Shown one piece after another: positions 3,026 to 26,585 of a stretch of DNA of 64,000 bases. Each line of letters starts with the position of its first letter. Position 1 is the first letter of the stretch. The position numbers and the translations under genes are program-made. The notes beneath the pieces were generated by a model that ran no database searches, was not told where the DNA came from, and saw only the letters and a list, made by a program, of their open reading frames with translations. Origin of the DNA: an uncultured Micrococcales bacterium (lineage in GTDB: Bacteria; Actinomycetota; Actinomycetes; S36-B12; UBA10799); the NCBI GenBank assembly GCA_937952095.1, contig CALFYG010000089.1, positions 1,114 through 65,113 on the forward strand, written 5' to 3'.

Positions 3026-3119
3026 TCAATCAATCCGAAATGCACCTTTACGGGACCTACCGAAACATGTACTGTAGTTCGTGCGTCGAGAATCCGGCGC
3101 ACTCTCGGATCTACAGAGA

Positions 3120-3155
3120 CGTTGGATCCACCCGTCGATCGGTACCTCTCGGTAC
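3120..3155 (+). promoter_or_regulatory. candidate regulatory sites upstream of the GT-sigma gene
   Basis: CGTTG-N15-CGGTAC (3120-3145) is a one-mismatch variant of the nGnAT-N15-GGGTAC motif. TCGGTAC is directly repeated at 3139 and 3149 (10-bp phase). Confidence 0.25.
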
Positions 3156-3228
3156 GACTTCTGCATCCCGACGTGAGCTTCAGACACCAGGCCGCGTCGC
3201 TCCACACTCCTGTTGAGCGAGGTTTCCT

Positions 3229-4998
3229 ATGTTCATCCACGTTGTATCCCGTCCCCTGTCCGATGTGACGCACGTTCCCCGCAGCGGGGTCCGTGCCCTC
3301 GTTGACTCCATCCGGCGCGCCGGGGGTGAGGCGGACTTCGACATTGCCACCGCAGGTGACATCGGCGCCGCAGTCACGGCCTGCGGCGACCAGCTCCTCG
3401 CGAGTTGGCGCCACAAGCGCCCAGAGGTGGTGCACGCAGTCGGGGTGGTGGCCACGCTGGCCGCTCTGCACGTCCGCCCTGATGATCTACCGGTCGTGGC
3501 CACGTTCGACGAGAACCCCTCGCCCGCGCGGCTCGAGGAGGAACTCGCCAGACAGGTGGACGCAATCCTGCCTCTGTCGACCTCTGAGCAGCAGCGCTGG
3601 CGTGAGGCCGGCGTCCGCTCGCTGCCAGCGGGTGTGATGGGGGTGCCTGCGCCGGCCACGCCGATGCCGACACGTCCTCAGGACGGCCATGTGGTGAGCC
3701 TGTCCACTGGACCCGGCTTGGAGTCGCTCATCAGGTCGATGCCCTTGTGGGGACCCAAGCGGCTCGTGCTGCTCGGGCACATAGGTGAGGAGAAGTTGCG
3801 ACGCCTCCGGGCGGTCGCCGACGAACTTGGTGTTCGGGCCATGGTCGACCACCGTCCGGGGTTGCGCGGTCAGGCACGAACGGCCGTCTGGCGCGACGCG
3901 CTACTGCTCGTGGCGGGTGCGGAGGGTGCCCGCAACGGGGCACACGTGCTGGAGGCCGCGTCTCACGGTGTCACGTCCGTGGCGGTCGCACGTGAGGCAC
4001 ATCTCGACCACATCGTCCCCGGAGCGACCGGTGTACTGATCGAGCCGGACGACGGGGTGCGAGGCCTCGGAGAGGCTGTCGGCGAGCTTCTGGGCGATCC
4101 GCTGCGGTGCCGTGGCATGGGCTCGGCTGCGTGGTTGCGTCTGCACGCATTGCACGAGAAGCCCGCGGTGGGGCAGCACTTGTTGTCGATGTACGAGCGG
4201 GTCCTGGGCGATCCCGCCCCGGAACCGGTTCGTGTGAGCAGCACGGCGCCTCTGACCGAGGAGGGCACGGAGTTGGCCCTGGCCTACATGCCCCTGGCCC
4301 GCCAGCTGGCACATCGGTATGCGGGCCGCGGGCAGCGGATAGACGACCTCGTCCAGGTCGCCTCGCTGGGCCTGGTGCGAGCGGCGTCGCGGTTCGATCC
4401 CCATTTCGGGACCGAGTTCCACTCGTTCGCCGTGCCCACCATCCTCGGCGAACTGCGTCGGCACTTCCGTGATCACGCGTGGGCGGCCCGCGTCCCGCGC
4501 AGCCTTCAGGAGGTCACGCTGAAGGTGCAGAGGGTGTCCGACGAGCTGCGCTCCACGCATGGAAAGGATGCGACTCCCGCCGAAGTGGCCGAGCACCTGG
4601 GCCTTGTGGAGGAAGAGGTCCTGCAGGCTATGCAGGCGCGCGGTGAGGCGATGAGTTCCAAGTCCCTCGACCACCCGATGGGCGAGGACGGCGATGAGGC
4701 GTTCGGTGATCTGGTGGGCGACCTCGACCCGGATCTCGACTACGTGGAGATGAGGGAAGCCGTGCGCGCGGCTCTGCAGCAGCTGCCGGAACGCGAGCGG
4801 GAGATCCTGCTCATGCGCTTCTACGGCGAGCAGACCCAGTCCGAGACCGCGCAGGCGCTCGGACTGTCGCAGGTCCACGTGTCCCGCCTGATCACCAGGA
4901 CGCTGGCGGCGCTGCGCGACCACGTCTTGAACGACGTCCCGCTGCCGCGGTCGTGGCAGTCCGAGGACGGCGCAGAGCCCGGACGGCGCGCGGCCTGA
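3229..4998 (+). CDS. fusion protein: GT-B (GT1/GT4-like) glycosyltransferase-like domain + SigB/SigF-family sigma-70 factor
   Basis: Residues 1-335 carry ...LLLVAGAEGARNGAHVLEAASHGVTSVAVAREAHLDHIVPGATGVLIEPDD..LLGDP (GT1 C-terminal Rossmann pattern). Residues ~345-589 carry YMPLARQLAHRYAGRGQRIDDLVQVASLGLVRAASRFD, FAVPTILGELRRHFRDHAWAARVPRSLQE and LPEREREILLMRFYGEQTQSETAQALGLSQVHVSRL (sigma regions 2, 3, 4). One uninterrupted frame. Confidence 0.8.
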   Translation: MFIHVVSRPLSDVTHVPRSGVRALVDSIRRAGGEADFDIATAGDIGAAVTACGDQLLASWRHKRPEVVHAVGVVATLAALHVRPDDLPVVATFDENPSPARLEEELARQVDAILPLSTSEQQRWREAGVRSLPAGVMGVPAPATPMPTRPQDGHVVSLSTGPGLESLIRSMPLWGPKRLVLLGHIGEEKLRRLRAVADELGVRAMVDHRPGLRGQARTAVWRDALLLVAGAEGARNGAHVLEAASHGVTSVAVAREAHLDHIVPGATGVLIEPDDGVRGLGEAVGELLGDPLRCRGMGSAAWLRLHALHEKPAVGQHLLSMYERVLGDPAPEPVRVSSTAPLTEEGTELALAYMPLARQLAHRYAGRGQRIDDLVQVASLGLVRAASRFDPHFGTEFHSFAVPTILGELRRHFRDHAWAARVPRSLQEVTLKVQRVSDELRSTHGKDATPAEVAEHLGLVEEEVLQAMQARGEAMSSKSLDHPMGEDGDEAFGDLVGDLDPDLDYVEMREAVRAALQQLPEREREILLMRFYGEQTQSETAQALGLSQVHVSRLITRTLAALRDHVLNDVPLPRSWQSEDGAEPGRRAA

Positions 4999-5003
4999 TT
5001 CGT

Positions 5004-5042
5004 GCAACTCGCCGGCCGGCCCTCCGCCGGCCGGCGAGTTGC
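5004..5042 (+). terminator. perfect 17-bp GC-rich hairpin after the GT-sigma gene
   Basis: GCAACTCGCCGGCCGGC / GCCGGCCGGCGAGTTGC with the 5-nt loop CCTCC. No T-tract, which is common in high-GC actinobacteria. Confidence 0.6.
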
Positions 5043-5083
5043 CAAGCCCTGCCAACCGGCCCCGCCGACCGTCCTGCAGTTCC

Positions 5084-5109
5084 GGTATGGAAACCGGCGG
5101 ACCGGGAAA
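5084..5109 (+). promoter_or_regulatory. candidate SigB/F-like promoter of the heptose operon
   Basis: GGTAT-N15-GGGAAA, 58 nt upstream of the gmhB ATG. Same -35 pentamer and spacing as the stress-gene sites; the -10 is of GGGWAW type. Confidence 0.3.
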
Positions 5110-5167
5110 AAGCCCACATCTTGATTGACCTGTTCTTCTCTTCCGGAAGGACCAGTGAGGACTGAAC

Positions 5168-5707
5168 ATGATGGCCGTCAACGCGGTGCTGTTCGATCGT
5201 GATCACACACTGACGATCGACGACCCGCCCTACAACGGGGATCCGGACCTGGTGCGCCCCATGCCGGGCGCGGTGGAAGCTGTGGCCCGCCTGCGCACCG
5301 CGGGTATTCCCGTCGGGGTTGTGACAAACCAGGCAGGAATCGGTCTGGGACTGCTCACCCATGAGCAGGTCGAGAAGGTCAACGCGCGCGTTGACGAAGT
5401 GGTCGGACCCTTCGACACGTGGCAGTACTGCCCGCACGCTCCCGCCGACGAGTGCAGTTGCCGCAAACCCGCGCCCGGTCTGATTCTGCGTGCCGCCGAC
5501 GCTCTGGGAGTCGATGCGCGCACCGTGGTCGTCATCGGGGACACCGTCATGGACGTGGGAGCTGCCGAATCTGCCGGTGCCACCGGGATCCTCGTCCTCA
5601 CCGATCGGACACGGGCCTCGGAGATGCGGCGTTCCCGGCTCGTCTGCCGAGACCTTCTGTCAGCAGTCGACTGGGTCCTCGCGGGTCAGTGGGTGATGCC
5701 CGCATGA
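5168..5707 (+). CDS. gmhB: D-glycero-D-manno-heptose 1,7-bisphosphate phosphatase (HAD-IIIA)
   Basis: LFDRDHTL...VVTNQAGIG...CPHAPADECSCRKPAPGL...IGDTVMDVGAA (GmhB/HisB-N type motifs). Confidence 0.85.
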   Translation: MMAVNAVLFDRDHTLTIDDPPYNGDPDLVRPMPGAVEAVARLRTAGIPVGVVTNQAGIGLGLLTHEQVEKVNARVDEVVGPFDTWQYCPHAPADECSCRKPAPGLILRAADALGVDARTVVVIGDTVMDVGAAESAGATGILVLTDRTRASEMRRSRLVCRDLLSAVDWVLAGQWVMPA

Positions 5708-6711
5708 GTGCGCGCACGTTGGTGACCCGGCTCGACAGCGCCGGTGACGTGCTGCTGGCCGGACCAGCGGTGCGCGCCGTCGCGCGATCGGGTGCCAGCG
5801 TCCCCCTTCTGTGTTCGCGCAAGGGTCTGGCAGCGGCGCAGTTGCTGCCGGACGTCAGTGAGATCCTGGTCTTCGATGCCCCGTGGGTGCACGGCGATCC
5901 TCCGCCCTTGCGCGCACGCGACCTCGCATCGCTGAGCTGGCGCCTGTACCGCCGCCGCTTCGACGACGCGGTCATCCTGACCTCGTCCTTCCAGAGTTCG
6001 CTGCCCATGGCCATGCTCTTGCGCGCGGCGCGGGTGGGCCGGATCTGCGGGGTCAGCGACGACTACCCGGGAAGTCTGCTCGACGTGCGCGTGCGGGTCG
6101 ACGACGGTCTGCACGAGGCCGAGCGAGCCGCTGCGATCGCGCAGGCCGCGGGGTACCCCGCCGATGGCGAGGGTCCCCGCATCCGTGAGGACCTACCGGA
6201 GGTGCCGGGCTGGGCTCCGGGCGGACCGTACGTGGTGCTGCACCCCGGCGCTGAGGTCCCGGCACGCATGTGGGATCCGGACCTGGCGCGCGATGCGGTG
6301 GAACTCATGCAGCGTGAAGGTCACCGGGTTGTGGTCACGGGCGGCCCCGATGAGCGCGCACTGACTGCCCACGTCGCAGGCGCCCACGGCGTCGATCTCG
6401 GCGGGCGTACAACACTGGCACAGCTGGCTGGAGTGCTGCGGGGAGCACAGGCCGTGGTGGTGGGCAACACGGGCCCCGCACATCTGGCAGCAGCGCTCGG
6501 CGCACCTGTGGTGTCCTTGTTCTCGCCGGTCGTACCGGCGCACAAGTGGGCTCCCTACACCGACCGGCTTCTCGTGCTCGGCGACCAATACGCGGCATGT
6601 GCACAGACCCGGGCGCGGGAATGCCCGGTCGCGGGTCACCCATGTCTGCGCTCGGTCGGTCCGCGCGATGTCCTGGCCGCTGTCGAGACCCTCACGCGGG
6701 TGGTCGCATGA
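5704..6711 (+). CDS. GT9 family glycosyltransferase (heptosyltransferase-like) 1
   Basis: ATGA overlap with gmhB. RLDSAGDVLLAGPAVRAV...GGRTTLAQLAGVLRGAQAVVVGNTGPAHLAAALGAPVVSLFSP... Confidence 0.85.
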   Translation: MSARTLVTRLDSAGDVLLAGPAVRAVARSGASVPLLCSRKGLAAAQLLPDVSEILVFDAPWVHGDPPPLRARDLASLSWRLYRRRFDDAVILTSSFQSSLPMAMLLRAARVGRICGVSDDYPGSLLDVRVRVDDGLHEAERAAAIAQAAGYPADGEGPRIREDLPEVPGWAPGGPYVVLHPGAEVPARMWDPDLARDAVELMQREGHRVVVTGGPDERALTAHVAGAHGVDLGGRTTLAQLAGVLRGAQAVVVGNTGPAHLAAALGAPVVSLFSPVVPAHKWAPYTDRLLVLGDQYAACAQTRARECPVAGHPCLRSVGPRDVLAAVETLTRVVA

Positions 6712-7661
6712 AAGTGCTCATGTGGCATGTCCACGGCGCCTGGGCGACGGCGTTCGTCCACGGCCGCCACGAGGTGCTCGTTCCCCTGACACCGGACCGA
6801 GGACCCGACGGCCGTGGTCTGCCGGCCACCTACGCATGGCCGGCGTCCGCCCGCGCCGTCTCGCCCGGGGAACTCGCGCAGGAGCAGTTCGACGTGGTCG
6901 TTCTGCAGCGGACCGAGGAGATCGACCTGCTTCGCCTGTGGTGCGGTCTGCGGGCAGGGGTCGATGTGCCCGCGGTGTTCGTCGAACACAATGCGCCACT
7001 GCAGCCGGTGGCCAGCCGGCACCCGCTCGCAGAGCAGAGCCGGATCCCCATCGTGCATGTCACGCACTTCAACGCGCTGATGTGGGACAACGGGCGGGCC
7101 CGGACCGAGGTGATCGAACACGGGATTCCCGACCCGGGGCCGCGGTACCGCGGAACGCTTCCGAGGGCCGCGGTGGTGGTGAATGAACCCCTTCGCCGGG
7201 GACGCGTCACGGGCACTGATCTCCTGTCGACCGTCGCCGACTCCGCCGCGGTCGACGTCTTCGGCATCGGAACGGCGGCACTGACCACCTCGGCCCACCG
7301 GCACAAGATCCTCGGTCATGGCGACATCGCTCACGATCCGTTGCTGGATCTCGTCGCCGGGCGCCGGGTGTACGTGCACCTGTGCCGTTGGACCAGCCTG
7401 GGCCTTTCCCTGCTGGAGGCCATGGCGATGGGGATGCCGGTGGTCGGTCTGTCGACCACGGCGGCACCCGAGTCCCTGGCCGCGAGCGCGGCTGTACTGA
7501 CCAACGACCCGCATGTCCTGCGCAGCGCGCTGCGCGAGTACCTCAACGACGACGCCGCCGCCGACGCCGCCGGGCGCCGGAACAGGTCGGCCGTGCTTTC
7601 CCGCTTCAGTCTCGAGAGGTTCCAGACCGACTGGGACCGAGTACTCAAGGAGGTCCTCTGA
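6708..7661 (+). CDS. GT1/GT4-like glycosyltransferase
   Basis: ATGA overlap. ...RRVYVHLCRWTSLGLSLLEAMAMGMPVVGLSTTAAPE... (GT-B C-terminal motif). Confidence 0.75.
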   Translation: MKVLMWHVHGAWATAFVHGRHEVLVPLTPDRGPDGRGLPATYAWPASARAVSPGELAQEQFDVVVLQRTEEIDLLRLWCGLRAGVDVPAVFVEHNAPLQPVASRHPLAEQSRIPIVHVTHFNALMWDNGRARTEVIEHGIPDPGPRYRGTLPRAAVVVNEPLRRGRVTGTDLLSTVADSAAVDVFGIGTAALTTSAHRHKILGHGDIAHDPLLDLVAGRRVYVHLCRWTSLGLSLLEAMAMGMPVVGLSTTAAPESLAASAAVLTNDPHVLRSALREYLNDDAAADAAGRRNRSAVLSRFSLERFQTDWDRVLKEVL

Positions 7662-8887
7662 TGAGGATTGCAATGGTGTCCGAACATGCCAGTCCGCTGG
7701 CCGTGCTCGGGGGTGTGGATGCCGGCGGCCAGAACGTCCACGTCGATGCACTCGCCCGCAACCTCGCCGCCCGCGGTCACGAGGTGGTCGTGCACACCCG
7801 GCGCGACGACCCTGACCTGCCCACCACCGTCGAGCTCGCACCTCGGTTGCGCGTGCATCACGTCGACGCGGGCCCGCCCACGTATGTGCCCAAGGACGAA
7901 TTCGGGCCATTCCTGCCGCGGTTCGCGGAGGAACTCGCACGCTACTGGGGTCGTTGGCGACCCGACATCGTCCACGCGCACTTCTGGATGAGCGGGGTGG
8001 TGAGCCTACTGGGCACCGAGCAGTACGCGATTCCGTCGGCGATCACATTCCACGCCCTCGGCGTGGTCAAGAAGCGGCACCAGGCGCAGGCCGACACCAG
8101 TCCTGATGTCCGGATCCCCGCCGAGCGGCAACTGATCGCTCGCATGGATCGCATCATCGCCACGTGCAGTGATGAGGTCCGTGAGTTGCAGGGTCTCGGT
8201 GGCGAGATCGACCGCATCGACGTCGTGCCGTGTGGTGTCGATGCGCAGGCCTTCGTGCCCCGGCCCTCGGTGCGGCCCGACGGACGTCCGTTCCAGGTCC
8301 TGTCGCTGGGCCGTCTCGTGCCGCGCAAGGGGGTTGGTGAGGCCGTGCGCATGATGACGGAACTCCCTGATGCGGAGTTGGTGGTCGCAGGCGGACCGCC
8401 CGCGGCCGAGGTGGACGACGACCCGGAGGTCAAGCGGCTCCGATCGTTGGCCAGGGAGCTCGGTGTGGCTGATCGGGTACGCTTCGTCGGCGCCGTGGAC
8501 CGCGATCGCGTGCCGCAGCTGGTGGCCGACTGTGACGTGGCCGTGTGCCTTCCCTGGTACGAGCCGTTCGGCATCGTGCCGCTGGAGATCATGGCCTGCG
8601 GCCGGCCGGTGGTCGGATCTGCGGTCGGGGGCCTTCTCGACACGGTCAGTGACGGCAGGACCGGACTACTCGTAGCACCCAAGGCACCGAGTGAGGCTGC
8701 TTCGGCCGTGCGGCGTCTGCTCGACGACCCCCGGCGGCGCGCCCGAATGGGTGAGGCCGCACGCCGCAAGGTGGAGCGTCTGTACGACTGGCGAGAGGTC
8801 GCCGAGGCGACCGAGGCGGTGTACCAGCAGATGTTGCAGGAGCGCGGACCGAAGCAGTCCGTCGCGGTGGGACGGACGGCGCGGTAA
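7661..8887 (+). CDS. GT4 family glycosyltransferase
   Basis: 1-nt TGATG overlap. MRIAMVSEHASPLAVLGGVDAGGQNVHVDALARNLAARGHEVVVHT...CLPWYEPFGIVPLEIMACGRPVVGSAVGGLLDTVSDGRTGLLV. Confidence 0.88.
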   Translation: MRIAMVSEHASPLAVLGGVDAGGQNVHVDALARNLAARGHEVVVHTRRDDPDLPTTVELAPRLRVHHVDAGPPTYVPKDEFGPFLPRFAEELARYWGRWRPDIVHAHFWMSGVVSLLGTEQYAIPSAITFHALGVVKKRHQAQADTSPDVRIPAERQLIARMDRIIATCSDEVRELQGLGGEIDRIDVVPCGVDAQAFVPRPSVRPDGRPFQVLSLGRLVPRKGVGEAVRMMTELPDAELVVAGGPPAAEVDDDPEVKRLRSLARELGVADRVRFVGAVDRDRVPQLVADCDVAVCLPWYEPFGIVPLEIMACGRPVVGSAVGGLLDTVSDGRTGLLVAPKAPSEAASAVRRLLDDPRRRARMGEAARRKVERLYDWREVAEATEAVYQQMLQERGPKQSVAVGRTAR

Positions 8888-9522
8888 TGAGTCCCCGAAC
8901 GGCGGCCCGGACCTCGGGACCGGACATCGAGATCCTGGTCGACCCCTTGGTCCAGGAACACCGAGCGGCAACAGTGTCAGCCCTGGAGCTGGCGGGCCCG
9001 GCGCTGGAGAAGGTGGCTGCGTGGGGCCGACGTCTGGCCGAGAAGTTGTCCACGGGCGGTCGTCTGCTGGTGTGCGGCAACGGCGGTAGCGCCGCAGAGG
9101 CTCAGCATCTGAGCGCGGAGATCGTGGGCCGTTTCCGGGACGACCGCCCGGCCTTCTCCGCACTGGCGCTGCATGCCGAGACCTCGAGTCTGACCGCGAT
9201 CGCCAACGATTACGGCCACGTGCACATGTACGCGCGGCAGGTGGAGGCGCACGCCAATCCCGGTGATGTGCTCCTTCTGCTGTCGACGAGCGGCCGTAGC
9301 CCGAATCTTCTCGAGGCGGCTGATCGCGCCAACCGGCTCGGCGTGCGCACCTGGGGTCTCACCGGACCTGCCCCCAATCCTTTGGCACAGCGCTGCGATG
9401 AGGCCGCGACCGTGCCGAGCGTGTCCACCAGCGCGATCCAGGAGGTGCACCTGGTCGCCGTTCACGTGCTCTGTGCAGCATTCGACGCCGCATTGCCGGC
9501 CACTTCGCGGCAGGTGCTCTGA
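8887..9522 (+). CDS. gmhA: phosphoheptose (sedoheptulose-7-P) isomerase, SIS domain
   Basis: 1-nt TAATG overlap. LLVCGNGGSAAEAQHLSAEIVGRF...ALALHAETSSLTAIANDYG...LLLSTSGRSPN. Confidence 0.88.
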   Translation: MSPRTAARTSGPDIEILVDPLVQEHRAATVSALELAGPALEKVAAWGRRLAEKLSTGGRLLVCGNGGSAAEAQHLSAEIVGRFRDDRPAFSALALHAETSSLTAIANDYGHVHMYARQVEAHANPGDVLLLLSTSGRSPNLLEAADRANRLGVRTWGLTGPAPNPLAQRCDEAATVPSVSTSAIQEVHLVAVHVLCAAFDAALPATSRQVL

Positions 9523-10925
9523 TGTCCCCGGATTGGACCGACGCGCCGCCGCTGGTGGTCGTGGGCGACAGCCTCCTGGATGTCGATGTAGACGGCTCCT
9601 GCACGCGAATGTGCCCCGACGAACCGGCCCCGGTGGTCGATGCCAGCCGGAGGATCGATCGCCCAGGAGGTGCCGGTCTTGCGGCGCTGCTCGCCGCCCG
9701 TGACCGCCCGGTCGTGCTTGTCACCGCGATCGGTGCCGATGAGGCAGGTGAGCGACTGCGGGAGCTGCTGGACGGACGCGTCACGCTTGTCGATCTCGGC
9801 GCCGCACACACCGTGGTCAAGACGAGGGTGCGTGTGGATGGCCGCACGCTGGTGCGAATCGACGAGTCCGGTACCGGGCATCCGGGCATTCATGGCGTGC
9901 CCGACGACGTCGCCGCCTGGTTGCGGTCCGCCGCTGCGGTGCTGGTCAGCGATTACGGCCTCGGAGTCACCTGTGAACCCGGCATCCGTCGGCTACTGGC
10001 GGCGGGACCCACTGTGTGGGACCCCCATCCTCGCGGCGCACAGCCCGTGCCCGGCGTCACGCTGGTTACCCCCAACGTCCAGGAGGCGTCGTACTTCTCA
10101 GGCCTGACAGGCAGCGGTCTGGCCGCCGCGATCAGGCAGGGCACGGACCTTGTCGAGCGCTGGTCCGCCAGCGGCGTGGCGGTTACGCGTGGCCGCGACG
10201 GGGTTGTCCTGTGCGCGCCGGACAGCCCGCCGCTGGTCGTGCCCGCCGAGCGGATACATGCAGGCGACACGTGCGGTGCAGGCGACGCGTTCGCGGCCGG
10301 TACCGCCCTCGCCCTGGCCACCGGGGCTGATGCCGCGCAGGCGCTGTCGGCCGGCGTTCGGCGAGCCGGGGACTTCCTGGGCAGGGGAGCGGTGGCAGGC
10401 CTGGATGCCCCTGAGTTCCGTGCGCCGACGCCGATCGGTGCCGATCAGGTCGTCGCCCGCACGCGAGCCGGCGGTGGCACCGTCGTGATGACCGGTGGCT
10501 GCTTCGATCTGCTGCATGCGGGCCATGTGGCGTATCTGGAGGCGGCCCGGTCGCTGGGCGACTGTCTGGTGGTCGCCCTCAACAGTGACGACAGTGTGCG
10601 CGGACTCAAGGGACCGGGCCGTCCGCTGGTTCCGGCCGCGGACCGCAGCCGGGTCCTGAGTGCCTTGGCCTGCGTCGACGCGGTCGAGGTGTTCGAGACC
10701 AGCACCCCGGTCCCGGTCCTCGAGCGCCTCAAGCCGGACATCTTCGCCAAGGGCGGGGACTACCGGGGCCACTCGATCCCGGAGGCCGCCGCGGTGCAGG
10801 CCTACGGCGGCCAGGTGGTTGTGCTGCCCGAACTGATCGGGCGCAGCAGTACCCGCCTCGTGCATGCGGCACGTGGAGCGGATCACGCAGTGGAGGAGCA
10901 GACATGTCGGACGCAGTCGGCCTAG
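9522..10925 (+). CDS. hldE: bifunctional heptose 7-phosphate kinase / heptose 1-phosphate adenylyltransferase
   Basis: 1-nt TGATG overlap. N-terminal PfkB kinase (VVGDSLLDVDV...GDTCGAGDAF) plus C-terminal cytidylyltransferase (VVMTGGCFDLLHAGHVAYLEAARSLGDCLVVALNSDDSVRGLKGPGRP). Confidence 0.88.
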   Translation: MSPDWTDAPPLVVVGDSLLDVDVDGSCTRMCPDEPAPVVDASRRIDRPGGAGLAALLAARDRPVVLVTAIGADEAGERLRELLDGRVTLVDLGAAHTVVKTRVRVDGRTLVRIDESGTGHPGIHGVPDDVAAWLRSAAAVLVSDYGLGVTCEPGIRRLLAAGPTVWDPHPRGAQPVPGVTLVTPNVQEASYFSGLTGSGLAAAIRQGTDLVERWSASGVAVTRGRDGVVLCAPDSPPLVVPAERIHAGDTCGAGDAFAAGTALALATGADAAQALSAGVRRAGDFLGRGAVAGLDAPEFRAPTPIGADQVVARTRAGGGTVVMTGGCFDLLHAGHVAYLEAARSLGDCLVVALNSDDSVRGLKGPGRPLVPAADRSRVLSALACVDAVEVFETSTPVPVLERLKPDIFAKGGDYRGHSIPEAAAVQAYGGQVVVLPELIGRSSTRLVHAARGADHAVEEQTCRTQSA

Positions 10926-11593
10926 GCCGGGTACTCATCACCGGAGGGGCATCCGGGCTCGGCGCAGCGGTGGCCGACGGCGTGGCAGCTGCCGGTGGAG
11001 AACCGATCGTGATGGACCTCGTCGCGCCTCGGCGCTCCCACGTCCACTTCGCCGTCGATCTCGCGGATACGGCAATGACCGAATCCGTGACGTCCTTCAT
11101 CGCCGCGGATGGCCTCGACGCGGTGGTGACCTGTGCCGCGATCGACTCCTGCGGCCCGCTCGAGACGGTGAAGACCGAGGACTGGGAGCGCGTGGTTCAG
11201 GTCAATCTGATGGGTACTGCGGCTGTGATTCGGGCCTCGATGAGTGCCCTGCTGGAGTCCCAGGGGCAGGTCGTGACGGTGGCATCCACCTTGGGCAGGC
11301 GCGCCTTGCCCGACGCCTCCGCCTACTGTGCCTCCAAGTTCGGCGTGGTGGGCCTGACGCGGGCGCTCAATGCGGAGATGGGGCACCGTCTGCGCGTCAC
11401 CTGTGTCATGCCGGGGGGGATGGACACCCCGTTCTTCGACGGCCGGCCACAGAAGTACAGGCCGGCCGCCGACGCCCCCCTGATGGTGCCGGAGGACGTG
11501 GCGGAGGTCATCGTGGACGTCCTTCGCCGGCGGGGATCGGCCACCGTCCCGGAGATCATGATCACCCCTGGTGGGGAGACCTCATGGCCGTAG
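10904..11593 (+). CDS. classical SDR family oxidoreductase
   Basis: VLITGGASGLGAAVA...ASAYCASKFGVVGLTRAL. 22-nt overlap with hldE. Confidence 0.8.
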   Translation: MSDAVGLGRVLITGGASGLGAAVADGVAAAGGEPIVMDLVAPRRSHVHFAVDLADTAMTESVTSFIAADGLDAVVTCAAIDSCGPLETVKTEDWERVVQVNLMGTAAVIRASMSALLESQGQVVTVASTLGRRALPDASAYCASKFGVVGLTRALNAEMGHRLRVTCVMPGGMDTPFFDGRPQKYRPAADAPLMVPEDVAEVIVDVLRRRGSATVPEIMITPGGETSWP

Positions 11594-12474
11594 CCCTGGC
11601 GCTGCGTGCCGCCGGTGTGGGTGACCTGCTCACGGCGGTCCCGGCCCTGCGCGCCGTGGCGCAATGCGATGGGGTACGCCGACTGGAGATCGCAGCACCA
11701 GGTTGGCTGCATCCGCTGGTACATCTCGTTCCGGGGGTCGCAGGGGCGGTTGATGTCGATGGGCTGATCCCACGACGTGATCTGTCGGACGCCGTGGCGT
11801 TCAACATGCACGGTCGAGGCCCGCAGAGCCATCAGGCGCTGATGACCCGGGAGCCCAGGGAGCTGGTGGCGTTCGCGTGCCCCGGGGTGTGGGAGACCGG
11901 TCCGGAGTGGTTCGTGGATCCGGAGGAGCCGGAGCGGGAGAGGTTCTGCAGGCTCGTGCGCTGGATCGGTCTGGACGCAGACCCCGAACTGGTGGGCATT
12001 CGCCGTCCGGATCGCAGGAGTTCGTACGGTCACGTCGTTCTGCATGTCGGCGGCACGGACCCACGACGCAGATGGCCTCCCGAGTACTTCGCCGATCTGG
12101 CCCGCCGGTTGGCCGGCCACCGCATCGTGCTCACCGGGGGACCCGCCGACATCGTGATAGCCCGCCGCACCGCACACCTGGCCGGTCTGGCCAGCGATCA
12201 GGTTCTGGCAGGCCGGCTGGGACTCGAGGACCTTGCGGCGTTGATCGCCGACGCGCGCCTCGTGGTGACCGGGGACACGGGCGCGGCACACCTGGCCCAC
12301 GCGTACGGCGTTGCCTCCGTGGTGGTGTTCGGGCCCGCCTCTCCCGGACAGTGGGGGCCGCCCACCGCCGTCCGCTCGATCGTTCTGCGTGGTCCGGGCG
12401 AGGAACCGCTCGCGGCGGATGTGCCCGTGGCCGATGTGGAGAAGTCTGTGGCTGCGCTGCTGGAGCAGTCATGA
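11584..12474 (+). CDS. GT9 family glycosyltransferase (heptosyltransferase-like) 2
   Basis: 10-nt overlap. RAAGVGDLLTAVPALRAV...VVLHVGGTDPRRRWPPEYF...LEDLAALIADARLVVTGDTGAAHLAHAYGVASVVVFGP. Confidence 0.8.
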   Translation: MAVALALRAAGVGDLLTAVPALRAVAQCDGVRRLEIAAPGWLHPLVHLVPGVAGAVDVDGLIPRRDLSDAVAFNMHGRGPQSHQALMTREPRELVAFACPGVWETGPEWFVDPEEPERERFCRLVRWIGLDADPELVGIRRPDRRSSYGHVVLHVGGTDPRRRWPPEYFADLARRLAGHRIVLTGGPADIVIARRTAHLAGLASDQVLAGRLGLEDLAALIADARLVVTGDTGAAHLAHAYGVASVVVFGPASPGQWGPPTAVRSIVLRGPGEEPLAADVPVADVEKSVAALLEQS

Positions 12475-14033
12475 ATGGTCCTCCGGAGCTGCAGAAGTTG
12501 CCGAATACTCAGAATCCATCGGGTCCGTCGAAACCGTCGCATCCGTGGAATCTGCAGGCTGCTTCGGACGACCCGGATCGTTGGCAACTTCAGCGGCTGG
12601 TGCCGTCCTTGGCCTGGGGCCGCGTGCTGGTCGTCGGCGATGTCCTGCTCGATGAGTGGCTACAGGGGTCATGCGCGCGGATCGCACGGGAGGCTCCGGT
12701 GCCCACGGTCACCATCGGCTATCGCGACGCCGCACCCGGAGGTGGCGGCAACACGGCGGTGAACGTCGCCAGTCTGGGTGGCCAGGCCCGCCTGATCTGC
12801 ACTGTGGGCGATGACGTCGTGGCCGACGAGCTGGTGGGCCACCTTCGGCGCCGCGGTGTGGATCCGTCCCTGGTGAGGGTCCCTGGGCGGCGCACGGTGG
12901 CCAAGCGGCGGGTCGTCGTGGACGGGCACGTCCTCGCGCGCTTCGACGAAGGTGACACCGGGCCGACTCCCGAGGCGATCGACATCGAAGTGGCCGAGCG
13001 CGTGCGCGCCCTGGCGCAGTCCAGCGATGCGGTCGTGGTGGCGGACTACGGACTCGGGACGTTGGGGGGAGCCGCCGTCAAGGAGGCACTCGCACACGTG
13101 GGTACGAGGATCCCGCTGGTGGTCGACGCTCACGACGTGTGTGCCTGGAGCGGAGTGAATCCCGGTGTGGTCACTCCCAACTGGTCCGAGACCGCCGACA
13201 TCCTGGGCCTCGACCCGCGCATGACGGGGCAGGCGCGCATCGAGCGCATCTGGGGTCACCGGCAGAGGCTGATGGCTGCGACCGGTAGCAGGCAGGTGAT
13301 CGCAACGTTGGACGGTGATGGGGCCCTGATAGTCGATGCCGAGGGGGTGCGCCACATACCCACGCGCAGGGTGGTCGATGAGCACAGCGCCGGGGCGGGG
13401 GACACATTCGCTGCAGCGCTGGCCCTGTCCCTGGCGGTCGGCGCCCCGATGGCGCAGGCCGCACATCTGGCGGTCTCCGCGGCCACGGTGGTCGTGCAGC
13501 GCCCCGGTACCGCGACGTGTTCGGCCGCCGACCTCGTCGCCGGCCCGGACACCGCACTGCTCACGACCGAACAACTCGCCGGGCTCTGTCGCGAGCATCG
13601 GCACGCTGGCCGCACGATCGCCTTCACCAACGGGTGCTTCGACGTACTCCACGCCGGGCACGTCGCGAGTCTGCGGGCTGCCGCCGAGCAGGCCGATGTC
13701 GTGGTGGTCGCCCTCGACAGCGACGCCGGGGTGCGTGCGGTGAAGGGTCCTGGTCGCCCGGTGAACCGCCTGGCCGACCGCGCCGCGGTGCTGGCCGCCC
13801 TGGACACCGTGGACCACGTGGTGTCGTTCGACCGGCCGGCCCCCGTGTCACTCATCGAGATGATCCGCCCCGACGTGTACGTCAAGGGGGAGGATCACGA
13901 CATCAGCACGTTGCCCGAGGCTCAGGCTGTGACCCGGTTCGGCGGGCGCCTTCACCGTGTGCCACTGCTGCCGGACCGTTCGACCAGCAGTGTGATCGCC
14001 GCGTGTGCCGCGGCACAGGGGCGCCCGGCGTGA
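12471..14033 (+). CDS. second HldE-like bifunctional sugar-phosphate kinase / nucleotidyltransferase
   Basis: ATGA overlap. PfkB domain (VLVVGDVLLDEW...PGGGGNTAVNVASLG...GAGDTFAAAL) plus IAFTNGCFDVLHAGHVASLRAAAEQADVVVVALDSDAGVRAVKGPGRP. Carries a ~45-aa Pro/Ser/Asn-rich N-terminal extension. Confidence 0.82.
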   Translation: MNGPPELQKLPNTQNPSGPSKPSHPWNLQAASDDPDRWQLQRLVPSLAWGRVLVVGDVLLDEWLQGSCARIAREAPVPTVTIGYRDAAPGGGGNTAVNVASLGGQARLICTVGDDVVADELVGHLRRRGVDPSLVRVPGRRTVAKRRVVVDGHVLARFDEGDTGPTPEAIDIEVAERVRALAQSSDAVVVADYGLGTLGGAAVKEALAHVGTRIPLVVDAHDVCAWSGVNPGVVTPNWSETADILGLDPRMTGQARIERIWGHRQRLMAATGSRQVIATLDGDGALIVDAEGVRHIPTRRVVDEHSAGAGDTFAAALALSLAVGAPMAQAAHLAVSAATVVVQRPGTATCSAADLVAGPDTALLTTEQLAGLCREHRHAGRTIAFTNGCFDVLHAGHVASLRAAAEQADVVVVALDSDAGVRAVKGPGRPVNRLADRAAVLAALDTVDHVVSFDRPAPVSLIEMIRPDVYVKGEDHDISTLPEAQAVTRFGGRLHRVPLLPDRSTSSVIAACAAAQGRPA

Positions 14034-15142
14034 GTCCTACCCCCCGCGAGCTGCCACGGCTCGATCATGTCGAGTCGATCGCCGTGCTGCGGGCCAACGC
14101 GATGGGGGACTACATCGCAGCCGAGCCGGCGCTGACCGCGTTGCGCAGCGCAGCGCCGCGCGCACACATCACCCTTCTCGCCTCCGCCTGGCACTTGGAG
14201 GCTCTGGCCGGGCGGCCCGGACCCGTCGACGAGGTGATCGTCCTGCCGGAAGTCCCTGGCGGCGCCGCCGTGGAGGAATCCGACTTCATCGCCGGCTTGC
14301 GATCACGGCGTTTCGAGATCGCGTTGCAGATGCACGGTGGTGGCCGCAACAGCAACCCGATCGTGGGCGCGCTCGGAGCCTCGTTCACCGCCGGTTTCCA
14401 GGCGGATGATGCGCCGCCCTTGGACGCCACCCTCGCGTACCAGTACTGGCAGCCGGAGGTGTTCAAGTGGCTCGATGTCGTCGGTCTGTTGGGTGTGGTG
14501 GCCCAGCGGGTGCGACCGCGGTTCCCGGTCATTGCTGAAGACCGCCGCGCTGCAGCCGAGAGCCTGGCCATGGCAGGCGTCGAGCCCGACACGGCGTACG
14601 TCGTGATTCATCCTGGCGCGACCGATCCGCAGCGTCGGTGGCCGGCGCAGCGGTTCGCGCAGGTCGCCGAAGCACTGCGCTGCATGGGGTTACAGGTCGT
14701 CGTGATCGGGACCCCCTCAGAAGGACCCGTCGTCGAGGAGGTGGTCCGTAACGCCCCCGGTGCGGTAGCTGTATCGACGCCGGACTTCGCGGCGCTGGTC
14801 GGCGTGCTGGAGGGGTCTCGGTTGCTGGTGGGCAACGACAGCGGTCCGCGGCACCTCGCAGAGGCCGTCGGGACCGCCACGGTTTCGATCTACTGGTGCG
14901 GCAATGTGATCAACGCCGGTCCGCTGTCACGCGATCGACACCGGGTACACATCTCCTGGACCACACACTGCCCGCAATGCGGCCGGATTCGTGTTGGGGA
15001 GCCCTTCCCCCCGCGTTGTTACGATGAAATCAGTTTCGTCAGCGACGTCCGGACGCAGTCGGTGATCCGAAGCGCCGAGGAGTTGCTCGGTCCGGCGGGC
15101 ACCATCCACCGACGATGCGACGGCAGGAGGGCGGCGTCATGA
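14030..15142 (+). CDS. GT9 family glycosyltransferase (heptosyltransferase-like) 3
   Basis: GTGA overlap. IAVLRANAMGDYIAAEPALTAL...VVIHPGATDPQRRWPAQRF...FAALVGVLEGSRLLVGNDSGPRHLAEAVGTATVSIYW, then the C-terminal Cys cluster CPQCG...RC. Confidence 0.8.
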   Translation: MSPTPRELPRLDHVESIAVLRANAMGDYIAAEPALTALRSAAPRAHITLLASAWHLEALAGRPGPVDEVIVLPEVPGGAAVEESDFIAGLRSRRFEIALQMHGGGRNSNPIVGALGASFTAGFQADDAPPLDATLAYQYWQPEVFKWLDVVGLLGVVAQRVRPRFPVIAEDRRAAAESLAMAGVEPDTAYVVIHPGATDPQRRWPAQRFAQVAEALRCMGLQVVVIGTPSEGPVVEEVVRNAPGAVAVSTPDFAALVGVLEGSRLLVGNDSGPRHLAEAVGTATVSIYWCGNVINAGPLSRDRHRVHISWTTHCPQCGRIRVGEPFPPRCYDEISFVSDVRTQSVIRSAEELLGPAGTIHRRCDGRRAAS

Positions 15143-15465
15143 GCACGGACCCGTCGAGGCTGGTCGTCTCCGACTCGGTGGCGAGGCTGATCCTTGCCGC
15201 GGAAGTCACTGGTGAGGACTCGGAACTGGTGCGAGAGCGCGTCAGTTCTGAGCTGCGGCAGCCGCTCTCGCGCTTCGTGATCGATCTGTCTGCGTGCAAG
15301 TTCCTGGACCCGGAGGCCGTCGATCTGATCGGCTCAGTGATGGGCGTGGCCGACCAGCGGGACATACCCATCGTCCTTGAAGGTGCGTCGGCCAACGTGC
15401 GAGTGATTCTCGGGATCGCCGGACTGCTGGACTTCCCGGCCGACCGGGGAGAGGGTGGATCATGA
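15139..15465 (+). CDS. STAS domain protein (anti-sigma-factor antagonist-like)
   Basis: ATGA overlap. ...RFVIDLSACKFLDPEAVDLIGSVMGVADQRDIPIVLEGASANVRVILGIAGL. The DSSG phosphoserine position appears to read DPEA. Confidence 0.75.
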   Translation: MSTDPSRLVVSDSVARLILAAEVTGEDSELVRERVSSELRQPLSRFVIDLSACKFLDPEAVDLIGSVMGVADQRDIPIVLEGASANVRVILGIAGLLDFPADRGEGGS

Positions 15466-16673
15466 ATCCGGTGGACGGGGGGAGCCGGTGGGAGGCCCCG
15501 GACACCCCACTGGTGCAGACAGTCGCGGCCCTCGGCAAGGAGGTTCGCGATCTGCGTGCCTCGGCACGGCTGCGCGCAGTGATCGAACAGGCCAAGGGCG
15601 TGCTGGTCGAGCGGCACGGGATCTCACTTGACGAGGCCTTCTCACGGCTGCGCAGCATGTCCCAGGAGCACAACGTCAAGCTTGTGGAAGTGGCGGCCAC
15701 AGTCGTGGGTGTGGCGCTTCCCGAGGACGAGGCACCGGAGTCCGCGGAGATCCTCGTCGACGAGGCCTTTCCGGCGTCGGAGGCGACCTCAGCGACGTGG
15801 AAGACCCTGCGCGAGCAACCGGATGTGAAGGCCGGCGTTGTCACTGCCGTGATGGATGCGGTGGCCAGTGCCACCGACGAGGGGTCGGAGGCGGCACAGC
15901 TGCTGCTGGAACTGATGGAGCCGTCCGGGGCGGCGGCGTTGACGATGTACCGGACGAGCGTCGATGGTTCGTTGCGCCTGGTCGGCCACGTGAACATTCC
16001 GGGGGACCTGGTCAGCTCCTGGCGCAGCGTGCCACCGAGCACCGATGTGCCGTTCGTCCGCTCGGTGGTGGACAACGTCGCCCTGTTCTGGGGGGACCGC
16101 GCGGAGCGGATCGCCGAGTTCCCGCAGGTGGCGCGCAGCGGTTCGGCCGGCTTCGAGGCGACCGCGACCATCCCCGTGGTGGAGGAAGAGACGGTCATCG
16201 GTGTGATCGGTCTGATCTGGCGTGATCGGCAAACGTTCGACGACCTGCGCAAACGGTCGATCACCAAGACCGTTCAGCGCGTGGCTCCGCTGTTGATGCG
16301 CAATCTGCGGGCCGCGGATCCGGAACTCGACTGGATGAACACCCTGATGCGGCTGCATCTGGATCCGTGGCTGATCCTCGATATCGTCCAGAACTCACAG
16401 GGCCAGCCCACCGATTTCGTCGTCCAGGATGTCGCCTCCAACGTCGCTGGTGGCGGCGACTGGCTGGGGCGCCGCCTGTTCGAGATCTGGCCCTTCCTCG
16501 CCGAGGACGGGACAGGTGACACCCTCATGCAGTTGGCGAGGACCGGCGGATCCTGGTCGGTAACCATCGCTGAGGAGTCGGCGGCGCCGTGGGGGGTCCC
16601 GGGGGGCATCCTGCGGTCCGTCCGCCTGGGGCTACGTGTGGCTCTGCTCTGGCGCACCGGCCAGCCGCACTAG
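15462..16673 (+). CDS. ANTAR domain (N-terminal) + GAF + PAS-like protein
   Basis: ATGA overlap. LRAVIEQAKGVLVERHGISLDEAFSRLRSMSQEHNVKLVEVAATVV is the ANTAR motif. The middle has a GAF-like pattern (..ATIPVVEEETVIGVIGLIW) and the C-terminus is PAS-like. Confidence 0.75.
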   Translation: MNPVDGGSRWEAPDTPLVQTVAALGKEVRDLRASARLRAVIEQAKGVLVERHGISLDEAFSRLRSMSQEHNVKLVEVAATVVGVALPEDEAPESAEILVDEAFPASEATSATWKTLREQPDVKAGVVTAVMDAVASATDEGSEAAQLLLELMEPSGAAALTMYRTSVDGSLRLVGHVNIPGDLVSSWRSVPPSTDVPFVRSVVDNVALFWGDRAERIAEFPQVARSGSAGFEATATIPVVEEETVIGVIGLIWRDRQTFDDLRKRSITKTVQRVAPLLMRNLRAADPELDWMNTLMRLHLDPWLILDIVQNSQGQPTDFVVQDVASNVAGGGDWLGRRLFEIWPFLAEDGTGDTLMQLARTGGSWSVTIAEESAAPWGVPGGILRSVRLGLRVALLWRTGQPH

Positions 16674-18083: not shown

Positions 18084-18095
18084 CGTCCCTTCCGC

Positions 18096-23183: not shown

Positions 23184-23209
23184 GGTATGGCGCTGACCCG
23201 TGGGGGTAC
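23184..23209 (+). promoter_or_regulatory. candidate SigB/F-like promoter of the 23253-24987 operon
   Basis: GGTAT-N15-GGGTAC, 43 nt upstream of ATG 23253. Its hexamer is the mirror arm of the inverted repeat CGTACCCCCA/TGGGGGTACG. Confidence 0.35.
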
Positions 23210-26559: not shown

Positions 26560-26585
26560 GGTATGGACCCTCCCGCACCGGGCAG
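26560..26585 (+). promoter_or_regulatory. weaker SigB/F-like promoter variant of the hemerythrin gene
   Basis: GGTAT-N15-GGGCAG, 36 nt upstream of GTG 26622. Confidence 0.2.

Follow-up and report, generated by a model that had tools for sequence, protein, structure and literature searches.

A probable cwg-type nucleotide-heptose cassette beside a sigma factor with a pseudo-glycosyltransferase domain in an uncultured actinobacterium

We analysed a 64,000-nucleotide stretch of DNA (hereafter the window) on contig CALFYG010000089.1 of an uncultured Micrococcales bacterium, which carries an operon of heptose-activation and glycosyltransferase genes set among stress-type regulators. The operon consists of twelve genes on the forward strand (5168–16673; genes described below lie on this strand unless stated otherwise). 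Open reading frame (ORF) starts and stops place an overlap at all 11 junctions (six 4-nt ATGA/GTGA overlaps, three of 1 nt, one of 22 nt and one of 10 nt), exactly as described in an earlier reading of this DNA, hereafter the original prediction. Pfam also returns the domain content assigned there to the chain, namely GmhB, GmhA, two HldE proteins, three family 9 glycosyltransferases (GT9), a family 4 glycosyltransferase (GT4), a GT1-type enzyme, a short-chain dehydrogenase/reductase (SDR), STAS and ANTAR. The same gene set is found in independent public gene calls on identical metagenome contigs, and the operon proteins occur letter-for-letter on hundreds of metagenome contigs. The precomputed gene and Pfam annotation of the window used here covers positions ~1–59000. 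GC content stays at 66–70% along the whole window with no compositional break at the operon. Overlaps of 4 nt are frequent elsewhere in the genome and recur in orthologous clusters, and thus point to nothing more than the usual translational coupling of a high-GC operon.

All four heptose-activation activities are encoded: isomerase, 7-phosphate kinase, 7-phosphatase and 1-phosphate nucleotidyltransferase (SIS, PfkB plus CTP_transf twice, and HAD-IIIA domains). The best NCBIfam family of each pathway enzyme is a heptose enzyme (GmhB of the beta type, GmhA and HldE). The gmhB-like gene (5168–5707; Pfam HAD families) encodes a HAD-IIIA phosphatase of the heptose 1,7-bisphosphate 7-phosphatase family, which scores 127.5 bits against the beta-type model (cut-off 178) versus 50 bits against the alpha-type model, with its DRDHT motif and C88-x-H90...C96-x-C98 loop intact. 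The gmhA-like gene (8887–9522; SIS_2, 90 bits) encodes a sedoheptulose-7-phosphate isomerase-like protein (TIGR00441, 158.9 bits, under the cut-off of 209.45). Two proteins follow the HldE plan, HldE1 (9522–10925; PfkB plus CTP_transf_like) and HldE2 (12471–14033; PfkB plus cytidylyltransferase), scoring 268 and 305 bits in the NCBIfam HldE model (cut-off 521). As all of these scores fall under their equivalog cut-offs, gmhA, hldE and similar names are to be read as family assignments only. Both kinase and nucleotidyltransferase motifs are intact in HldE1 (DTCGAGD, GCFDLLHAGH) and in HldE2 (SAGAGD, GCFDVLHAGH); the established definitions are GAGD for PfkB kinases, (H/T)xGH for nucleotidyltransferases, DxDxT for HAD phosphatases and the Cys/His loop for GmhB.

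The two complete HldE paralogues stand beside a single GmhA and a single GmhB. HldE1 is 50–53% identical to HldE of the Streptomyces, Blastococcus, Thermomonospora and Gaiellales cassettes described below, and a search of the genome contig collection with HldE1 returned distant relatives only (Gaiellaceae at 52%, then Proteobacteria). HldE2 carries a 45-residue N-terminal extension and matches HldC (5X9Q) and HldA (4E84) in the PDB. In Georgenia, an HldE2-like gene lies beside GT9c-like and GT9b-like genes and two GT2 genes, and in Carbonactinospora a GT9c-like gene is found as an orphan. HldE1 is the core-cassette copy, and HldE2 forms a separate accessory module with GT9c. The STTR5 motif, (F/L)xxGRSTT, marks nucleotide-promiscuous heptose nucleotidyltransferases (PMC11573728). 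The corresponding C-terminal motifs read LIGRSST in HldE1 and LPDRSTS in HldE2, neither an exact match, with the STTR5 Arg present in both; use of nucleotides other than ATP, or of a second sugar phosphate, is therefore possible.

The SDR (10904–11593; 229 aa; adh_short, 117 bits) is of the classical adh_short type and not an HldD-type extended SDR, and its PDB matches are generic sugar, polyol and ketoacyl SDRs. It is conserved after hldE1 in Gaiellales (56–58% identity) and also in close relatives. No HldD-type C6'' epimerase was found, in that no strong Epimerase-family gene is annotated at ~1–59000, the search being confined to the window; within that range the absence reported in the original prediction holds.

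We then examined the five sugar transferases, all soluble GT-B enzymes, beginning with the GT4 (7661–8887), which among PDB entries stands closest to sucrose-phosphate synthase (SPS) and to MshA. The protein matches TeSPS (6KIH) over its full length (residues 3–392) at 247 bits, MshA at 179 bits and GlgM at 104 bits, with BshA also matched, whereas the lipid-acceptor enzymes score far lower (PimA/PimB ~58 bits; PimA/PimB and WaaG within 45–59 bits). The best solved GT4 relatives use small soluble acceptors, mostly phosphorylated ones. It is not MshA itself (TIGR03449, 251.4 bits versus a cut-off of 462.5). In TeSPS, Arg105 and Arg178 hold the phosphate of sucrose-6-phosphate, with His158 and Glu331 as essential residues and Arg249/253 and Glu339 as UDP ligands (PMC7264703). 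The GT4 residues K78, R151, H131, E301, R218/R222 and E309 align to TeSPS Arg105, Arg178, His158, Glu331, Arg249/253 and Glu339, respectively, and K78, H131, R151, E301 and E309 are invariant in 10 orthologues from four orders. Similarly, Corynebacterium glutamicum MshA aligns with K78 and an Arg in the same acceptor-phosphate columns. The GT4 is predicted from these comparisons to glycosylate a phosphorylated small acceptor; no other single argument for a phosphorylated small-molecule primer is as strong. The original prediction had named a small molecule among the conceivable acceptors, and this idea gains independent support from an SPS/MshA-like GT4 whose two acceptor-phosphate basic residues do not vary among those 10 orthologues.

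The arrangement recalls the two-step pathways in which SPS, or MshA of mycothiol synthesis, is paired with a phosphatase: the GT4 matches TeSPS and MshA from end to end, keeping the catalytic residues and those for the donor and the acceptor's phosphate, and a HAD phosphatase is encoded in the same operon. It differs from them in that sucrose and mycothiol genes are absent here, and the glycoside would be extended by further transferases. The GT1-type enzyme, GT1c (6708–7661; Glyco_trans_1_4, Glycos_transf_1 and Glyco_trans_1_2 at 32–36 bits), is a GT-B transferase of which only the C-terminal GT1 domain is recognisable. Among the related loci that we compared (labelled L030, L038 and so on), its orthologues are 51–70% identical in L030, L033–L035, L037 and L041, and it is absent from the Gaiellales cassettes.

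The three GT9 enzymes all match PF01075: GT9a (5704–6711) at 93.6 bits, the short GT9b (11584–12474; 296 aa) at 78.1 bits over its C-terminal half only, and GT9c (14030–15142) at 85.5 bits. Their PDB matches are limited to 3TOV, 1PSW, 2GT1/2H1F and 6DFE, that is, WaaC/WaaF enzymes of the lipopolysaccharide (LPS) type and the Veillonella GT9 3TOV, and a profile search with GT9a likewise returned WaaC/WaaF/3TOV only. Against the heptosyltransferase I, II and III equivalogs, the best scores are 59–73 bits (cut-offs 134–185). An AlphaFold2 (AF2) model of GT9c (pLDDT 92.6) gave template modelling (TM) scores of 0.70–0.75 to 3TOV and WaaF. In the same fold search, the chloroplast NDH subunit PnsB1 (9GRX, 7WFF, 7F9O) ranked between WaaF and WaaC, at TM scores of 0.65–0.68. 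The alignments of GT9a and GT9c with WaaC and 3TOV begin at residues 4–17. GT9b is the last gene of the core cassette, and its orthologues come after HldE or the SDR in L001–L003, L034 and L053.

The GT9a homologues found come overwhelmingly from Actinomycetota, a phylum that has no lipid A. The operon shares with the LPS inner-core pathway (GmhA/HldE/GmhB/HldD plus WaaC, WaaF and WaaQ) the same four-step nucleotide-heptose route and the same GT9 family, and, like waa clusters, it encodes soluble or peripheral transferases and no exporter. It differs in that the host phylum offers no lipid A/Kdo acceptor, HldD is lacking, two HldE paralogues are present, the scores lie far under the equivalog cut-offs, and two of the GT9s bear Cys-rich motifs. 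Overall, the GT9s resemble LPS-type enzymes, whose donor is ADP-heptose and whose acceptor is Kdo2-lipid A, and not the TibC type. The Cys/His clusters of GT9a (residues 299–314) and GT9c (residues 314–332) are absent from WaaC/WaaF-type enzymes and from GT9b, and look like metal sites. Net charge and pI of the GT9 N-domains were also computed as a possible clue to the acceptor and were judged uninformative.

We investigated the membrane and export content of the locus by a Kyte–Doolittle scan with a 19-residue window. None of the 12 products exceeded 1.75 and no transmembrane segment was detected, which bears out the absence of transmembrane helices noted earlier by eye (12 of 12); the segments that were flagged are Ala/Val-rich, and the one in GT9a lies inside the region aligning to WaaC and other GT9s. 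The annotation at ~1–59000 contains no Wzx/Wzy, glycan exporter, polyprenyl-phosphate transferase, LCP protein or polyketide synthase/non-ribosomal peptide synthetase (PKS/NRPS). The statement that the operon lacks any membrane or export component therefore stands for Wzx/Wzy, priming transferase and PKS/NRPS, and fails in one respect, since a membrane-bound PAS-PP2C regulator adjoins the operon. Two ABC_membrane plus ABC_tran genes lie ~22 kb downstream and a major facilitator superfamily gene lies further away, none of them linked to the operon. Furthermore, we scanned 10 orthologous loci from two actinobacterial classes (Nanopelagicales-like metagenome-assembled genomes (MAGs), Streptomyces, Blastococcus, Thermomonospora and Gaiellales) for ORFs with multiple transmembrane segments, and found no exporter or multi-transmembrane protein inside or beside the cassette. 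The only multi-transmembrane proteins within 10 kb of the scanned cassettes were cytochrome bd, TctAB, a FUSC-type protein and unrelated small proteins. With an exporter at 0 of the 10 loci, the orthologous clusters are not regularly tied to a known pathway with a dedicated exporter.

Directly upstream of the chain lies a gene overlooked by the original prediction (3229–4998), which encodes a 589-residue sigma factor with a sixth glycosyltransferase-like domain (Pfam Sigma70 r2/r3/r4 plus weak GT1 matches). A sigma factor of the SigB/F/G family (residues ~345–570) is joined here to an N-terminal GT-B domain (residues 1–326). In an AF2 model (pLDDT 83), the N-terminal domain is closest to ManT/BshA/GlgM/MshA/SPS and the C-terminal part to SigB; the sigma part is 33–36% identical to the Bacillus subtilis and Staphylococcus aureus SigB structures, and the glycosyltransferase domain is 25% identical to the operon's own GT4. 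Missing from this domain are the catalytic His, both donor-phosphate Arg residues and the initial Glu of the EX7E motif (Ala229 in nearly all of 50 homologues), which makes it a pseudo-glycosyltransferase. The family comprises more than 200 full-length homologues (44–98% identity), found in uncultured Actinomycetota, some labelled 'Candidatus Nanopelagicales' and one labelled Limnocylindrales. One targeted literature search returned no description of a sigma factor fused to a glycosyltransferase domain; the family seems undescribed and may be the most original item at the locus. PADLOC assigned no anti-phage defence family to the transferases, despite a weak Pfam 'GT4-conflict' match, and matched only the sigma domain, to MzaA.

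The last two genes of the chain encode a single-domain STAS protein (15139–15465; Pfam STAS/STAS_2) and a putative RNA-binding regulator with an N-terminal ANTAR domain and a GAF domain (15462–16673; ANTAR 66.9 bits, GAF_2 26 bits), in which ANTAR occupies residues 30–82 and GAF is followed by ~140 residues with no Pfam match. A reverse-strand gene (16632–18083) converges on the ANTAR gene, with an overlap of 42 nt, and encodes a membrane-anchored PAS plus PP2C (SpoIIE-type) phosphatase (Pfam SpoIIE, PAS_4), with 3–4 N-terminal transmembrane segments (Kyte–Doolittle values up to 2.4). The clustered trio of sigma factor, STAS protein and PP2C phosphatase is conserved in L031, L038, L039 and L045, as is the phosphatase itself, and the ANTAR-GAF protein is 55–87% identical in the same four loci whether or not the cassette is present. 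Likewise, L039 and L045, which lack the cassette, keep the STAS gene beside the sigma gene. Since STAS and ANTAR genes are retained without the cassette, they belong to a regulatory backbone and not to the biosynthetic unit in which they had been placed.

This backbone resembles the SigB partner-switching system (RsbU PP2C, RsbV STAS, RsbW and SigB) in clustering a SigB-family sigma factor, a single-domain STAS protein and a PP2C phosphatase, with a GGGWAW-type −10 element. It differs in several respects. No RsbW/SpoIIAB-type kinase (HATPase_c_2) is annotated at ~1–59000 or beside the sigma gene in L030–L032, the sigma factor bears a 330-residue pseudo-glycosyltransferase domain, and the island also includes an ANTAR-GAF protein. 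SpoIIAA/RsbV-type STAS proteins have their phosphorylatable Ser in a DSSG-type motif; where it would be expected, the sequence is FL(D/N/E)P(E/V/A)A in the four STAS proteins of the backbone, FLDPEA in the one studied here, for which a PDB search gave no match. The backbone STAS protein appears, tentatively, to lack a phosphorylatable serine. Partner-switching-like STAS/PP2C modules are reported to govern polysaccharide synthesis elsewhere (Anabaena HenR/All4160), and a CsbD gene follows the sigma gene in L031.

Transcription signals were sought around the operon. A 17-bp GC-rich hairpin (5004–5042, forward strand) directly follows the stop of the sigma gene; its fold of −42.7 kcal/mol (z = −5.8) was equalled by 0 of 200 shuffles, and it lacks a U tract, so it may be terminator-like or transcript-stabilising. 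Further downstream, 59 nt ahead of the gmhB ATG, lies a promoter-like motif GGTATG-N14-GGGAAA (5084–5109, forward strand) with a SigB-type −10 (GGGWAW). Its −10 agrees with GGGWAW/GGGTAY, as in SigB/SigF promoters. The degenerate pattern occurs once in 64 kb (0.08 expected), and the conserved element, GGTATG-N14-GGGWAW, recurs at the homologous position in six related lineages (L030, L037, L038/L048, L040/L041, L045), preceding a small ORF in the cassette-free L045. With two mismatches allowed, six sites were found versus 1.5 expected, three of them intergenic and correctly oriented, including the operon's own. The other two, of the GGTATG-N14-GGG(T/C)A(C/G) class, lie at 23184–23209 (forward), 44 nt before a stress-type group of hypothetical, holin-like and DUF3618 genes, and at 26560–26585 (forward), 36 nt ahead of a gene for hemerythrin that precedes two Na+/H+ exchanger genes. 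The three oriented sites suggest a small local stress regulon.

The search for a sigmaE-type promoter (AAC, 16–17 nt, CGTCT) yielded, ahead of gmhB, only an AAC...CATCTT pair spaced 21 nt apart, which is not conserved in orthologous leaders; on these two grounds it was discarded. A scan of 2900–18300 for sigma-70 promoters and T-rich terminators found no promoter, and terminator-like matches no more frequent than chance. The gmhB 5' leader is not unusually structured (z = −0.1), and Rfam at gathering thresholds found no family in the whole window, including no known ANTAR-target or riboswitch leader.

Gene-neighbourhood comparison, put forward as a check in the original prediction, revealed a core that recurs as GmhB-GT9-[GT1]-GT4-GmhA-HldE-[SDR]-GT9 in Streptomyces, Blastococcus, Thermomonospora and Gaiellales. 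GT9a orthologues are ~60% identical in Streptomyces, Blastococcus, Thermomonospora, Pseudonocardia, Actinosynnema, Modestobacter and others. The 12-gene cluster of Streptomyces thermolilacinus contains orthologues of gmhB, GT9a, GT9b, GT1c, GT4, gmhA and hldE1 (45–65% identity) with 4-nt overlaps, and the Blastococcus and Thermomonospora orthologues are 42–60% identical. Gaiellaceae/Thermoleophilia MAGs carry gmhB-GT9a-GT4-gmhA-hldE1-SDR-GT9b (44–62% identity), with a carbamoyltransferase gene upstream and a soluble PAS-GAF histidine kinase gene downstream. In the cassettes of cultured actinomycetes, the GmhB-like HAD phosphatase is often fused to a GT2; optional extras of the orthologous cassettes are an extended-SDR epimerase, a carbamoyltransferase, a GT2 and a GCS2-type ligase.

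The Streptomyces member of this family leads to a described system. The 12-gene cwg operon of Streptomyces coelicolor (SCO6179–SCO6190, cwgA–L) has carried its name since 2002, when a role in making a 'cell wall glycan' was predicted for it (Hong et al. 2002; PMC6767563, PMC5839063). It is a direct sigmaE target, vancomycin-induced and divergent from a sigmaE-dependent deacetylase gene, and its role in glycan synthesis is 'predicted' or 'tentatively' assigned in wording that is unchanged in 2018, 2019 and 2026. SCO6185–6188 (transferase, phosphoheptose isomerase, bifunctional HldE, transferase) follow the order of GT4-gmhA-hldE1-(SDR)-GT9b here, and both are operons of soluble enzymes without an exporter, induced by stress there and probably so here. 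The differences are a SigB-type promoter beside the sigma fusion here and the extracytoplasmic function sigma factor sigmaE there, the additional hldE2-GT9c pair, a classical SDR in place of the extended-SDR epimerase/dehydratase, and the absence here of GT2, carbamoyltransferase and GCS2 genes. By gene content and order, the cassette appears to be the counterpart of S. coelicolor cwg, and actinobacterial heptose-oligosaccharide clusters are also discussed in the literature; the original prediction's description of the system as undescribed is thus not upheld.

In close relatives, the cassette varies between constant flanks. The full operon, in the same order, occurs in the frame of diverged fusion genes in L030, L037 and L040/L041. 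In the decayed operons of L038 (4436–7900) and L048 (1276–4740), all three GT9s and both hldE genes are lost, and gmhB, GT4 and gmhA are retained at 85–87% identity and the SDR at 57%, followed by STAS, ANTAR and PP2C. L039 and L045 have sigma-STAS-ANTAR-PP2C with no cassette, L031 has sigma-CsbD, a gmhB remnant (12341–12634), ANTAR and PP2C, and L032 has the sigma gene alone. The cassette is an accessory insert in a conserved regulatory island, being full, decayed or absent between the same flanking regulators. The survival of gmhB, GT4 and gmhA in L038/L048 suggests a working sub-module around a sugar phosphate; a phosphatase, a GT4 and a sugar-phosphate isomerase being the survivors is a further likeness to the SPS and MshA pathways.

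These results make it very probable that the locus is a cwg-type accessory cassette, driven by a stress sigma factor, which makes nucleoside diphosphate (NDP)-D,D-heptose and builds a heptose glycan with soluble enzymes. As to the acceptor, we tentatively favour, with somewhat less than even confidence, a product assembled in the cytoplasm on a small phosphorylated acceptor, with the SPS/MshA-type GT4 as the priming enzyme. Transcription would start at the SigB-type promoter (5084–5109), for which the neighbouring sigma factor is the most probable reader; the pseudo-glycosyltransferase domain of that factor could sense a ligand or bind a partner. The GT4 would prime the pathway by glycosylating a phosphorylated small acceptor, most simply the operon's own heptose or sedoheptulose phosphate, or an inositol phosphate. 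Heptose and other sugars would next be attached by the three GT9s and the GT1-type enzyme; the HAD phosphatase may in addition strip the primer's phosphate, and the classical SDR would modify a sugar. Assembly in the cytoplasm on a non-polyprenyl acceptor would thus yield a heptose oligosaccharide or glycoside made under stress. Published salt responses agree with a SigB-type promoter and do not discriminate a cytosolic from an envelope product: salt raises S. coelicolor cwgA expression with no induction of sigE, and a Frankia gene annotated as ADP-heptose:LPS heptosyltransferase, linked to the cassette by annotation name only, is salt-induced.

Several points weigh against cytoplasmic assembly on a small acceptor, or against the steps by which we arrive at it. 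The acceptors of characterised GT9 enzymes are a lipid-anchored glycan (Kdo2-lipid A) or proteins, and not soluble sugars. The GT4 acceptor assignment rests on the homology of one enzyme, and K78 and R151 could equally bind the head-group phosphate of a phosphoinositide. Since waa clusters have no exporters and PimA/PimB-type enzymes build membrane glycolipids with no transmembrane helices of their own, the lack of a membrane gene is compatible with a lipid acceptor made elsewhere. The sigmaE control and vancomycin induction of cwg point to an envelope role, and the assignment of the cassette to cwg was made through S. thermolilacinus and published annotation. Similarly, the most probable reader of the promoter, the adjacent sigma fusion, was named from adjacency and motif type.

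The strongest rival is an envelope glycoconjugate, as first proposed for cwg, in which soluble or peripheral transferases would decorate a membrane-anchored acceptor on the cytoplasmic side, for instance a polyprenyl-linked wall glycan or a phosphatidylinositol-type glycolipid, with the acceptor, flipping and attachment provided by unlinked genes, the latter two as for the LPS core; we regard it as a genuine possibility, though doubtful on balance. In addition to the regulation of cwg, it would account for three GT9s that are closest to WaaC/WaaF and 3TOV, GT9c in structure as well, for a membrane-anchored PP2C sensor adjoining the operon, and for the GT2s and carbamoyltransferase added in Streptomyces-type clusters. 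Partner-switching-like modules control exopolysaccharide synthesis in other bacteria, and the waa and Pim enzymes are likewise without transmembrane helices and linked exporters. However, no priming transferase, flippase, ABC exporter or LCP ligase is found in or beside the cassette in the 10 loci from two classes, the GT4 belongs to a soluble-acceptor clade and scores far above its similarity to PimA/PimB or WaaG, and the promoter is of the SigB type, the only sigmaE-like pair being the misspaced, unconserved AAC...CATCTT. The 'cell wall glycan' itself has remained a prediction since 2002.

Cytoplasmic protein heptosylation by at least one GT9, in particular the often stand-alone GT9c type, in the manner of TibC/AAH with autotransporters, is very unlikely in our estimation. 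The operon shares with that system soluble GT9-related enzymes; TibC/AAH use ADP-D,D-heptose and carry a Cys-based metal finger in the C-lobe, which in TibC is a four-Cys iron finger (Cys339/342/358/370), and the N-terminal beta-barrel of TibC (residues 1–97) is needed for activity (PMC4358343). GT9a and GT9c have invariant Cys/His clusters that sit in the C-terminal part, as the TibC finger does, namely C299/C307/H312/C314 in GT9a (C-x7-C-x4-H-x-C, 26 orthologues) and C314-P-x-C317...C330 in GT9c (C-P-x-C-x12-C-x-H/D, 51 homologues); GT9b has none. All enzymes of the operon are soluble, and the orphan GT9c homologue of Carbonactinospora also fits a stand-alone function. On the other hand, phmmer queries with the GT9s or with the GT9a profile left TibC unmatched, for GT9c and for that profile even at E ≤ 10. 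To TibC (4RAP/4RB4), the GT9c model reaches a TM score of only 0.45–0.55, which ranks under WaaC, WaaF and 3TOV in the fold search. The model opens with a Rossmann strand (residue 16), so the beta-barrel required by TibC is missing, and a beta-hairpin thumb is not apparent either. Genes for an autotransporter or repeat-protein substrate are absent near the operon, and three GT9s with a GT4 and a GT1 suggest chain building, not single-sugar modification of a protein. Heptosylation by enzymes of the bacterial autotransporter heptosyltransferase type, proposed in the original prediction, is thus disfavoured. Least probable is a secreted or specialised natural product, a heptose glycoside of septacidin/hygromycin-type chemistry exported by unlinked transporters: ADP-heptose is a documented natural-product precursor in actinomycetes, heptose-synthetase clusters with several glycosyltransferases have been proposed to make heptose oligosaccharides and Streptomyces-type clusters carry a carbamoyltransferase and a GCS2-type ligase, but the annotation of ~1–59000 shows no gene for an aglycone, aminocyclitol, nucleoside, PKS or NRPS, entire orders share the cassette, uncultured lineages with small genomes among them, which sets it apart from typical secondary-metabolite clusters, and a stress sigma factor is in control rather than a pathway-specific regulator.

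Elsewhere in the window, cytochrome bd oxidase genes cydAB lie at its start (1–1420, forward), and a pair of fused ABC_membrane plus ABC_tran genes, possibly CydDC-like, lies 36 kb from cydAB and not adjacent to it (~37713–40942, forward). A reverse-strand gene (~25062–26024) has the domains of a bacterial type IB topoisomerase (Top1B_N_bact plus Topoisom_I), an enzyme understood to be uncommon in bacteria. A DUF222 plus HNH endonuclease gene (32033–33337, forward), of a kind that is often multi-copy in actinobacterial genomes, stands beside a gene (29658–31895) for a 745-residue multi-transmembrane protein with no Pfam match.

The cwg-type system was already known genetically and is biochemically unsolved; what is new here is its regulatory context of a sigma/pseudo-glycosyltransferase fusion, an apparently non-phosphorylatable STAS protein, ANTAR-GAF and a membrane PP2C, together with the SigB-type promoter, the added hldE2-GT9c module and a classical SDR instead of an epimerase. 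Streptomyces biology has been without an answer on the cwg product since 2002, and a 2024 commentary calls the role of NDP-heptose beyond LPS, protein heptosylation and a few antibiotics 'elusive'. The present locus offers a handle on this question, as relatives with a decayed or missing cassette are natural 'knock-outs' in the same regulatory frame, the predicted acceptor of the GT4 can be assayed, and a candidate sigma factor and promoter are defined. Taking cytoplasmic assembly on a small acceptor further, the cwg-type cassettes of Actinomycetota at large might make a soluble heptose glycoside or oligosaccharide that serves as a stress protectant, switched on by an undescribed SigB-like sigma class whose pseudo-glycosyltransferase domain senses a metabolite or docks the STAS protein, a proposal that we consider speculative and rather unlikely as a whole. 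If true, it would give NDP-heptose its first physiological role inside Gram-positive-type cells, and the pseudo-glycosyltransferase domain, derived from the GT4 clade, would dock a non-phosphorylatable STAS protein in place of an RsbW kinase or sense a pathway metabolite. The sigma/pseudo-glycosyltransferase fusion could be a new coupling of sugar metabolism to the general stress regulon. Furthermore, as NDP-heptoses are ALPK1 agonists, the identity of abundant environmental actinobacterial producers would be of wider relevance.

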